From Escherichia coli (GTDB lineage: Bacteria > Pseudomonadota > Gammaproteobacteria > Enterobacterales > Enterobacteriaceae), in the NCBI RefSeq assembly GCF_022846255.1, contig NZ_AP025682.1: a stretch of 64,000 bases of DNA. One strand, given 5' to 3'. Below are positions 21,001 through 24,000 of this stretch, in pieces; the stretch's first letter is position 1, and each line of letters starts with the position of its first letter. The position numbers are program-made.

Positions 21001-24000
21001 TCGGAGACTTTAAAGGGTTTATCAGAAGGCTTGAGGGTGCGGATTTTTGCGTCGGTAAGGGATATATGGGGGTCACTCCATTATCGAACTAACCTGACCC
21101 CAGATTTGACCACCAATTTTTCCCGATGCGTAGGGTAAAATCAAAATGCACCGAGAAGAGTTTTCACACTAACCTGTTGAATCAACATCAGATAAAGATT
21201 CGCAAGGATGCAAGAAAACAGAAAATTGGCTCCTCTGACTGGACTCGAACCAGTGACATACGGATTAACAGTCCGCCGTTCTACCGACTGAACTACAGAG
21301 GAATCGTGAGAACGGGGCGCATATTACTTAGCGGTACCTTGTCTGTCAACACTAAATTTCATAAGCCATTTCAATTGGTTAATTAATCTGCAAAGTTGTT
21401 AATTAATGAACATTCGTCGCCGAAAACGAGTCTGTATCATTAGCGTGATGCAGTCTCTGCAAAGGATCTTGTTGATAAAATTGGCAGAAACGTTGCCACA
21501 ATGAAGGGAAACGAGGAGCAAAAAGTTCTGGGGCGCTAAAGAAATATTCAGAAAGTACGGCAAAACATTCAGCAGGATCACTGGCAGCATAAGCATCGAT
21601 GCTCGCCGCATTCTCGCCAACCAACTCGATTTCTTCCTGAATGTTGTTCATTGCAGCATGAAGATCGTGTTCCCAGCCAGCAACCTCACGCAACGGAATA
21701 AAGGGAACTCCGCTGGCGCGATCGCCGTTACGGGTGTCCAGCTTATGAGCGACTTCATGAATAATCAGGTTAAAACCAGAAGCATCAAAAGAATCTTGTA
21801 TATCCAACCAGTTCAAAACGATAGGCCCTTGCTGCCAGCTCTGACCTGACTGAACAATACGTTGGTTATGCACCAGACCGATATCGTCTTCCCATTCATC
21901 ATCGACCACAAATGGCGCAGGATAAATTAAGACTTCATGAAAACCATCCAGCCATTCCAGTCCTAACTCCAGAACGGGCAGGCAAAATAGAAGTGCTATC
22001 CGGCAGCTTCTTAATGAATTCAGCTCAAAGCCCTGTAAAGGAACAAGCCGTTTTTGCTGTAAAAAACGTTCGGCAAGAGTGACTAATTTGCTTTGTTCCT
22101 GTTCCGTCAGACACGTTAAAAGGGGGATCGATAGTGCTTCCTGCCAGGGAAGGGCAGTTTGATGTGCTGATTCTTGTACTTTCCAGGGCCACTTAATCAT
22201 CGTTTTGCTCGCAAACTCGTCACTTGAACAAAATTGCACGGACAGGGACTGTTAAAATGCCAAATTTCCTGGCATCATGGCAACCATCTGAACGGAGAGA
22301 TGCCGGAGCGGCTGAACGGACCGGTCTCGAAAACCGGAGTAGGGGCAACTCTACCGGGGGTTCAAATCCCCCTCTCTCCGCCACTTTATCAATGACTTAT
22401 CTCCCGACTTCCCGCCTTGCTTTTCCTAAACAGAACAATCGTAGAATATTCTTGAAGGGTTAGATCGTCACTGTTTTCTGTTCGATACTGTGACATTCAG
22501 CACTTGATTCGCTATGGGTCTGACAGGAAGGTTTCGAGCGAAAATCTACAGTTATTCAGTCGTTTTCTTATCGGTCACCATTATTCTTTTAGACATTGAT
22601 CCTATGAAACTGCCGCAAAGTTGCTGGCGGGAACTGAAGTTGCGTAGAGAAGGGGTCAATAATTGAGCCAAAAAAGGAACGCGGCCGTCAGATTAAAGCC
22701 GCGGGACAAAGTCCATAATTTCCAAGAGTTGTTGAATTTCCCAGCTTTTTTGAAAGCCTTTGTATCATACTAACAAGTAAAAAAGGTTTAAATACCAAAA
22801 TTAACCTATATTTCTGGTTAGCTTTACCATGACAGATGACTTGCTCCTGGAGACATTGGCGCAGCCAGTCTGTATTGGTGAGTTGTGTATTTATTGTTCG
22901 CCGTTTTCTCAGTTTTTTTCTACAGACATAATAAAAAAGACACGTCTCAAGCATGAGCGTGTCTGAGTTTGTCTTATTTATTTGTCTTGGTAAATTATTG
23001 TCGTTACTACCAGGCACTGTTCTGTTAAATAATTGAAGTCAGCGCAAAAAAATCAATGAGACATCATCTCCTCGACCACTTCTTTGCTACTCAACTGATA
23101 TGGATAATACGTTGGCCAGTTTTCCATTTCATTCAATAAAGACTGTTGGGTATCATTACCCATAAAAATGTGAAAATGAGATGATTTTCGTGGTGCAATT
23201 ATATGATCGCTAAATTGAATATATTTAGGGGCTTTGCTTTCAGGATCTTTACATTCGAATAAGTAACGAACGCCTTTCTTGCCTGATTTATAGGTGAGTA
23301 TTTTGTATCCATCGTAATCATATTTACAGGATGTTGTTTCATTATGTCTATGGAATTCAACAATGCCGTCCTCAATGCCAATCATCTCGATATCTGTCAC
23401 ATAACCTTTGCGATAATAATCTTTAATTTCAGCAAATGTTTTGGTTTTATCTGCATCCGCTTTCTTCTGAAAGACGGGGTCAAGTTTGCCACTTTGCAGT
23501 AAAGGATAAACGGATTGCCAGACTCCATCCCAGTCACTGAGCGTTCGGTTTTGTACATTGGTATCATCAAAAACACCATTAGCAGCTTTTTGTTCGACCT
23601 CTGTTAAGGGTTTGCCGTGTGAGTGATGACCATGCGAAAAGGCAGGAGCGCTAACAATAAAGACGCCTAAAGCAACAGCCAGTTTATGAAGACGAATCGC
23701 CAAAACAGTTTCCTCCAGAGTTAATGTACATGATGTATAATGTTATATTGTAACATATGGCGAAATGCAATAACTCTTAGGAAACGAGAGCATAGTTTTC
23801 TCAGGTGTATTTTCCTATCTTATTGAAATAAAATAAATTATTCTGGTGATGAAAGGTTGATGACAAACGAAACATAACTTGATGCGATCTGTGTGGGCCG
23901 GATAGGGCGCTCGCGCCGCATCCGGCCGGGATAACGCGTACTTTGTTGGCAATATGAAGTTATAGAGATAATTTGTTGTGAACCTGCTTGCGTAACTGGT

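Follow-up and report, generated by a model that had tools for sequence, protein, structure and literature searches.

The interval 23704-23960 is the entire intergenic gap between msrQ and zinT in a 64-kb stretch of Escherichia coli DNA, referred to as the window. Several complete E. coli chromosomes annotated with msrQ and zinT carry the surrounding segment, 23000-24000, with 100% identity, and this segment was matched in 5,417 of 5,426 genomes. Following the annotation of strain FDAARGOS_497, msrP, msrQ and zinT are all three on the minus strand. The gene msrQ occupies 23960-24595, with its stop codon at 23960-23962, and zinT occupies 23053-23703; the latter starts with a TTG codon (23701-23703) and has a Shine-Dalgarno sequence, GGAGG, 8 nt ahead of it (23712-23716, minus strand). 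Beyond zinT, the same annotation gives tRNA-Ser, mtfA, tRNA-Asn and then an integrase. The gene order is that of K-12. A first-pass annotation had described a Zur-like palindrome and a REP element flanking zinT: both elements are present, but both lie upstream of the gene, on its 5' side.

The palindrome AATGTTATATTGTAACATA lies at 23739-23757, i.e. 36 to 54 nt upstream of the zinT TTG, and forms the core of the zinT Zur operator. Its ATGTTA and TAACAT arms pair perfectly, while the pairing of the full arms is imperfect. In the register defined from the structure, the 20-mer Zur box reads TGTTACAATATAACATTATA on the minus strand (23736-23755), which places it 33 to 52 nt ahead of the first codon of zinT. 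Gilston et al. 2014 (PLoS Biol, PMC4219657) give a structure-based Zur motif for E. coli, TGWNAYRWTATAWYRTNWCA. This motif has a single match with two mismatches or fewer in the 64 kb, for 0.11 expected: it is the 20-mer at 23736-23755, which has one mismatch (19 of 20 positions). The validated operators of ykgM and pliG also have one mismatch each to this motif. The purine/pyrimidine skeleton RNNNYRNNRYNNYRNNNY is found at the same 20 positions with no mismatch, and the sole match in the window to the 23-bp Panina consensus with at most five mismatches is at 23737-23759. Motif positions 9-12 are TATA, the central tetranucleotide, contacted by Tyr45, that tells a Zur box from a Fur box (PMC4219657). 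The box sits in front of a zinc-uptake gene; enterobacterial Zur operators are expected at the promoters of such genes or of genes for zinc-free ribosomal paralogues. AATGTTATATTGTAACATA is beyond chance.

We scored the window with a symmetrised, leave-one-out Zur matrix built from the K-12 znuA/C, ykgM and pliG operators (n=3), zinT being excluded. The site proposed by the first-pass annotation gives the best score: ranks 1 and 2 of the approximately 64,000 positions are 23736 (17.1 bits) and 23741 (16.9 bits), with no other position above 10.8. The maxima obtained on random 64 kb sequences have a mean of 11.4 (sd 2.1), the highest of 100 being 17.12. One random window in 100 thus reaches 17.1 bits. 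With a training set of only three operators, the matrix result is supportive rather than decisive. The second register (23741-23760) is 5 bp off the first and scores almost equally; paired high-scoring registers 5 bp apart are also found at znuA/C, ykgM and pliG. Registers with this offset fit the published picture, in which two Zur dimers occupy overlapping sites.

The operator is at the same place as that of K-12 zinT (yodA), PzinT, the subject of the published work on Zur binding and repression. The two share the orthologous position, the 20-mer register, the RNNNY skeleton and the central TATA, and their alignment contains 21 identical bp, ATATGTTACAATATAACATTA. They differ at motif position 19 (23737), which is C in K-12 and T in the window, the K-12 20-mer TGTTACAATATAACATTACA being a perfect match to the Zur motif. 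Three more substitutions are found in the outer flanks of the ~30-bp footprint, at 23729, 23759 and 23762. On the K-12 operator, Zur binds in vitro with an apparent Kd of 0.053e-18 M2, two dimers bind cooperatively with a footprint of ~30 bp, and repression in vivo is ~984-fold (PMC4219657). In O157:H7, whose allele carries the same Zur core as the window, deletion of zur derepresses zinT, and EDTA or cadmium induces it (PMC3053223). The window operator is thus that of K-12, in sequence and in place, with one peripheral transition; Zur would be expected to bind and repress the T variant by analogy with the K-12 and O157 alleles.

Comparison with the znuA/znuC operator (crystal structure 4MTD), which the first-pass annotation had suggested as a check, places the two in one motif class: read in the same register, they agree at 15 of 20 positions. 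As at the zinT site, a second register is offset by 5 bp, consistent with a dimer of dimers. Disparities nevertheless appear between these two operators: that of znuA/znuC serves two divergent promoters whereas the zinT site serves a single gene, and according to the published measurements it is the weaker Zur binder, the apparent Kd at PzinT being ~150-fold tighter than at the znuC operator (PMC4219657).

The substitution at 23737 is lineage-specific. Motif position 19 is T on the zinT coding strand, still a pyrimidine, while it is C in K-12, in the 6 other sampled alleles and in E. albertii. With T in place of C the matrix score falls to 17.1 bits, from 21.7; the exact 47-nt operator allele is rare, with 50 occurrences among 5,389 complete genomes. 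We compared eight diverse E. coli alleles, chosen to span the range of identities. Over the 256-bp gap they vary at 49 sites; nothing changes at 23738-23758, and the window's own T is the sole change within the 20-mer. Among these eight alleles, conservation of the Zur box is nevertheless not statistically distinguishable from that of the rest of the interval. The evidence from other species is stronger than this within-E. coli conservation. In a collection of one genome per species, the exact 17-mer ATGTTACAATATAACAT occurs at 116 loci in other species, and 17 of them have the start of a ZinT, ZnuA, L31B or L36B homologue no more than 130 nt away. The loci with ZinT are those of E. albertii, of an Enterobacter strain and of the alphaproteobacterium Amaricoccus. 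The E. albertii Zur box is a perfect match to the motif. The asymmetric core of the Enterobacter site has the opposite orientation with respect to zinT, which is expected because the operator is dyad-symmetric.

The palindrome had also been said to overlap the likely zinT promoter. In favour of this, the Zur box contains a putative extended -10 element, TGTTACAAT (TGnTAnAAT; 23755 to 23747, minus strand), one of the two elements of this form in the window, and TGTTATATT is found at the equivalent place in Enterobacter. From this element we predict a zinT start near 23741 and a leader of ~38 nt, with Zur covering ~-14 to +6; the Zur box would therefore overlap both the -10 element and the start site. 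Scanning 450 bp with the sigma-70 consensus detects no promoter at the Zur box, because its -35 is poor. The proposed overlap is deduced from the DNA sequence. No mapped zinT transcription start was found, and it seems to be undocumented in the openly accessible literature. The start-site table of Kim 2012, obtained under zinc-replete growth, contains only a weak start of 5 reads, inside msrQ, and msrQ and zinT are not mentioned in the supplements of Adams 2021.

The regulation that these data suggest is the following. In cells with enough zinc, Zur would be zinc-loaded and two of its dimers would bind cooperatively to opposite faces of ~30 bp centred at ~23746-23748. The covered stretch would include both TGTTACAAT and the predicted start, so that RNA polymerase would be excluded. 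When zinc is scarce, Zur would lose its regulatory zinc and leave the operator, and zinT would be transcribed, providing the periplasmic zinc-binding partner of ZnuA.

Other candidates in the interval were rejected. Partial ZntR sites were proposed at Zur promoters in 2024 (PMC11618457). The sequence ACTCTGGAGG (23712-23721) was considered as a ZntR half-site and not retained, ~3.8 such matches being expected per window; it overlaps the zinT ribosome-binding site. Two inverted repeats, I2 and I3, were dismissed since they are not conserved among alleles, as was an ORF of 16 codons upstream of the Zur box, which is frame-shifted in other alleles.

A conserved, promoter-like and AT-rich stretch (23815-23866) lies outside both the operator and the REP. 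Thus, the claim that these two elements together account for the non-coding structure of the interval was right as to their identification but incomplete. The stretch comprises TTGTCA-N18-AATAAT (23866 to 23837, minus strand), located 90 to 130 nt further upstream than the box and matching 10 of 12 consensus positions, and an AT-rich block, ATAATTTATTTTATTTCAATAAGATAG (23841 to 23815, minus strand), which is conserved in E. albertii. It could be argued that this distal element is the zinT promoter. Its start would precede the Zur box by 75 to 95 nt, and the box would block elongation, as a roadblock, instead of excluding the polymerase. Alternatively, zinT could have two promoters, the distal one serving a Zur-independent induction by cadmium or oxidative stress. 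Besides the match to the consensus, the behaviour of the element in the eight E. coli alleles speaks for this proposal: despite a variable spacer, every allele keeps TTGTCA as the -35, and the -10 never departs from xATAAT. But it seems unlikely on several grounds. The -35 half is within a ~118-bp insertion specific to E. coli, and E. albertii, which is devoid of it, keeps the Zur box and zinT. The genome-wide table, obtained with zinc-replete cells, records no start at the distal element, whereas initiation would be expected to continue at a roadblocked promoter. A 984-fold repression is more typical of promoter occlusion. Finally, this is the one promoter-like match in the 450 bp scanned, which is at the level of shuffled sequence (mean 0.9).

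It is also unlikely that the interval holds a regulation that is lineage-specific or undescribed, based either on the T at 23737 or on TTGTCA-N18-xATAAT with the AT-rich block (23815-23866). In the first case, the rare T might weaken Zur binding and make ZinT expression leaky in this HPI-carrying lineage; in the second, the element and the block might constitute a second zinT promoter, independent of Zur, or the site of a regulator.

The REP-type palindrome that had been noticed between zinT and msrQ is a lone palindromic unit, a REP of the z type, situated in the msrQ 3' region at 23893-23927 on the plus strand, composed of a foot, GTGG (23893-23896), and a hairpin with a C.C bubble (23896-23927). 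Its sequence on the minus strand is GCCGGATGCGGCGCGAGCGCCCTATCCGGCC. The arms of the inverted repeat (23896-23910 and 23913-23927) are 15 nt each and 87% complementary; the hairpin consists of 9 bp, the C.C bubble, 4 bp and a 4-nt loop, CGAG. Folded in a context of 86 nt it gives -27.3 kcal/mol (z = -2.5). Read on the msrQ strand, the REP is GCCGGATGCGGCG-CGAG-CGCC-CTATCCGGCC-CAC, and the msrQ transcript carries it in the inverted (iREP) orientation. The hairpin starts 32 nt past the msrQ stop and is therefore extragenic, between two genes of the same strand.

REPs are defined by a mismatch in the stem, a GTAG foot, an extragenic position and a high copy number (Ton-Hoang 2012, PMC3333891). 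The NC_000913.3 annotation used for K-12 marks no repeat_region, not even where a RIP is known to lie, and membership in the family was therefore judged by sequence. As in the E. coli z-type REPs (Bachellier, Gilson; PMC3333891), the arms are of the form GCCGGATGCGGCG...CGCC.TATCCGGCC with a bubble in the stem, the site is extragenic and 3', between tandem genes, the copy number is high, and the element is a target of IS1397. A 47-nt query has at least 176,813 matching places (E <= 0.01), spread over 5,425 genomes; the median genome holds at least 34 of them, and 1,823 records hold 40 or more. The window itself contains a canonical z REP, in the BIME at 63200-63310, which reads GCCGGATGCGGCG-TAAA-CGCC-TTATCCGGCC-TAC; the msrQ-zinT REP differs from it at 6 of 34 positions. 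Differences from the z type are found in the organisation, the copy between msrQ and zinT being single and not in a BIME, as is the case for 84 of the 584 K-12 REPs, and in the loop, CGAG instead of TAAA. A further difference is in the foot: the canonical GTAG is missing in the window allele, which has GTGG, and published mutagenesis predicts that recognition by TnpA(REP), the transposase associated with REPs, would be lost. The foot is GTAG in the O157, BE311 and WS4437A alleles, GTAT in K-12 and GCAG in E54. We take the GTGG foot as a slight decay of a true REP, not as a sign of non-membership.

A further argument comes from strain H105, in which the alignment is interrupted in the middle of the REP hairpin; a transposase gene of IS1397 adjoins, and the junction reads ...AGCGCCCTATCCGGCC. 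IS1397 inserts specifically into REPs (PMC1525189). Its presence in the REP loop of H105 thus provides an independent functional confirmation of the REP identity.

The REP lies on ~118 bp (23842-23959) present in E. coli and absent in E. albertii, where the Zur box is kept, no REP is found and the msrQ stop is ~128 bp from the zinT start. The TTGTCA-N18-xATAAT element would have come with this REP-bearing insertion.

That the GC-rich hairpin would be a terminator specific to this locus, or a chance palindrome foreign to the REP family, could be suggested by its being a single unit, not in a BIME, with a GTGG foot in place of GTAG. This is very improbable given the ~34 or more similar copies per genome, the mere 6 of 34 positions that separate it from the canonical z REP of the same window, the GTAG carried by other alleles at this site, and the IS1397 located in the loop in H105. 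Moreover, no T-run follows the hairpin, which is thus not an intrinsic terminator, and a scan for intrinsic terminators over 23600-24050 gave none. A search of the whole window against Rfam, at the gathering threshold, returned nothing in the interval; only DsrA, RseX and two tRNAs were found elsewhere.

As for the operator, Zur and Fur boxes are related AT-rich dyads, and an older study, attributed to Puskarova in 2002, reportedly saw an influence of fur and soxS on yodA expression, from which one could propose a Fur box, the operator of another member of the Fur family, or an accidentally symmetric AT-rich -10 region. All of these are very improbable: the 19-bp Fur consensus has no match with seven mismatches or fewer in the interval and a marbox is no better than background, the central TATA specific to Zur and the RNNNY skeleton are both present, ATGTTACAATATAACAT precedes znuA, zinT and L31B/L36B genes in distant species, and both Zur binding and zur-dependent repression are published for the zinT operator (PMC4219657, PMC3053223).

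Altogether, we estimate at about 0.9 the probability that the interval is the ordinary msrQ-zinT gap of E. coli with two known elements, the zinT Zur operator and a single z-type REP. Both are textbook features, already known at msrQ-zinT. The first-pass annotation was therefore correct in considering neither as novel, since one is a characterised operator and the other a common repeat.

The most likely role of the REP would be to protect the 3' end of the msrPQ mRNA and to damp read-through into zinT. At the 3' end of the msrPQ transcript it would form a stable GC-rich hairpin, shielding the mRNA from 3' exonucleases and reducing the transcription that enters zinT; with less read-through, zinT would be left under the control of Zur alone. 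This role is proposed by analogy with classical work on REPs and with a 2026 preprint. REPs between tandem genes have been associated with expression biased towards the upstream gene, and the REP of yjdMN has been described as a stabiliser and a partial terminator, such effects being stressed as context-dependent (bioRxiv 10.64898/2026.03.23.713779). The element of yjdMN, REP325, resembles the present case in that it lies between two genes of the same strand and is proposed to stabilise the upstream mRNA and to attenuate read-through. It is however an array of 12 hairpins, the full array being required for its Rho dependence, whereas only one hairpin is found between msrQ and zinT. In addition, unlike in the REP325 case, the downstream gene, zinT, has its own tightly repressed promoter.

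The significance of these elements goes little beyond their correct annotation. Confirmation of the operator indicates that the zinT Zur site can be recognised by a reader of the sequence only, and the lineage displays a rare transition in the operator together with a decayed REP foot. No more than four Zur sites are validated in E. coli; the zinT operator is one of them, and among the tightest. The REP-bearing 118 bp, specific to E. coli, are a target of IS1397 in other strains. The locus is thus an example of REPs bringing diversity to 3' and 5' regulatory regions while the operator is left untouched.

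The sequence between msrQ and zinT (23704-23960) belongs to a rare allele: identity to 23690-23975 of the window reaches at least 99% in only 131 of 5,349 complete genomes, most complete genomes being 90-95% identical over this interval. Such a divergence is unusual for core intergenic DNA of E. coli. Over zinT plus the gap, identity to K-12 is 95.6%, versus 98.2% on the mtfA side.

The downstream side of zinT also differs from K-12. The zinT stop codon marks the exact end of homology, which restarts at 22830; in the intervening region (22831-23052) 222 bp of unrelated sequence stand in place of 995 bp of K-12 DNA bearing yodB, a gene that the window lacks. 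Within this replacement, on the zinT strand, a hairpin is followed by a T-run (around 22936-22975). Further on lies the yersiniabactin high-pathogenicity island (1-21302), whose insertion point is a tRNA-Asn gene (21230-21302) and which carries an integrase along with irp1, irp2, ybtA, ybtP, ybtQ, ybtX and ybtS. With the island, another system that scavenges zinc and iron, YbtX being its zinc transporter, comes to lie about 2 kb from zinT. Scanning the island with the Zur matrix returned no match above 8.1 bits.

Upstream of zinT, the minus strand displays at 23815-23866 a promoter-like element, TTGTCA-N18-AATAAT, together with an AT-rich block, ATAATTTATTTTATTTCAATAAGATAG, which is kept in E. 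albertii. For K-12, Kim 2012 attributed to zinT a weak start site within msrQ, supported by 5 reads and preceded by a CATAAT -10 hexamer, which would give a leader of 429 nt; this hexamer is replaced in the window by CATAAC (around 24140-24160, inside msrQ). Closer to the gene, ACTCTGGAGG (23712-23721, minus strand) overlaps the zinT Shine-Dalgarno sequence and resembles a ZntR half-site: it agrees with ACTCTGGAGT at 9 of 10 positions, a match that is not significant by count. Partial ZntR sites have been proposed at all four Zur promoters (2024 paper, PMC11618457).

The gap has received insertion sequences in other strains. In E. coli H105 (NZ_CP021454.1; positions 1-600 of the locus L013) IS1397 interrupts the loop of the msrQ-zinT REP, and strain 736 (H43) shows the same pattern. 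A canonical BIME-1-like pair, in which a long AT-rich linker connects a z REP to a y REP in inverted orientation, is present elsewhere in the window (63200-63310), as are the small RNA genes dsrA (39688-39774, plus strand) and rseX (31263-31352, minus strand), both found with Rfam at the gathering threshold. In E. coli HB-Coli0 the insertion is an ISVsa5 of the IS4 family (775-1983 of the locus L014), which separates the REP from the Zur box at the equivalent of position ~23793. The native sequence left there is no more than about 104 bp, an aligned stretch reaching the first zinT codons, so that the distal promoter-like element is severed from zinT.
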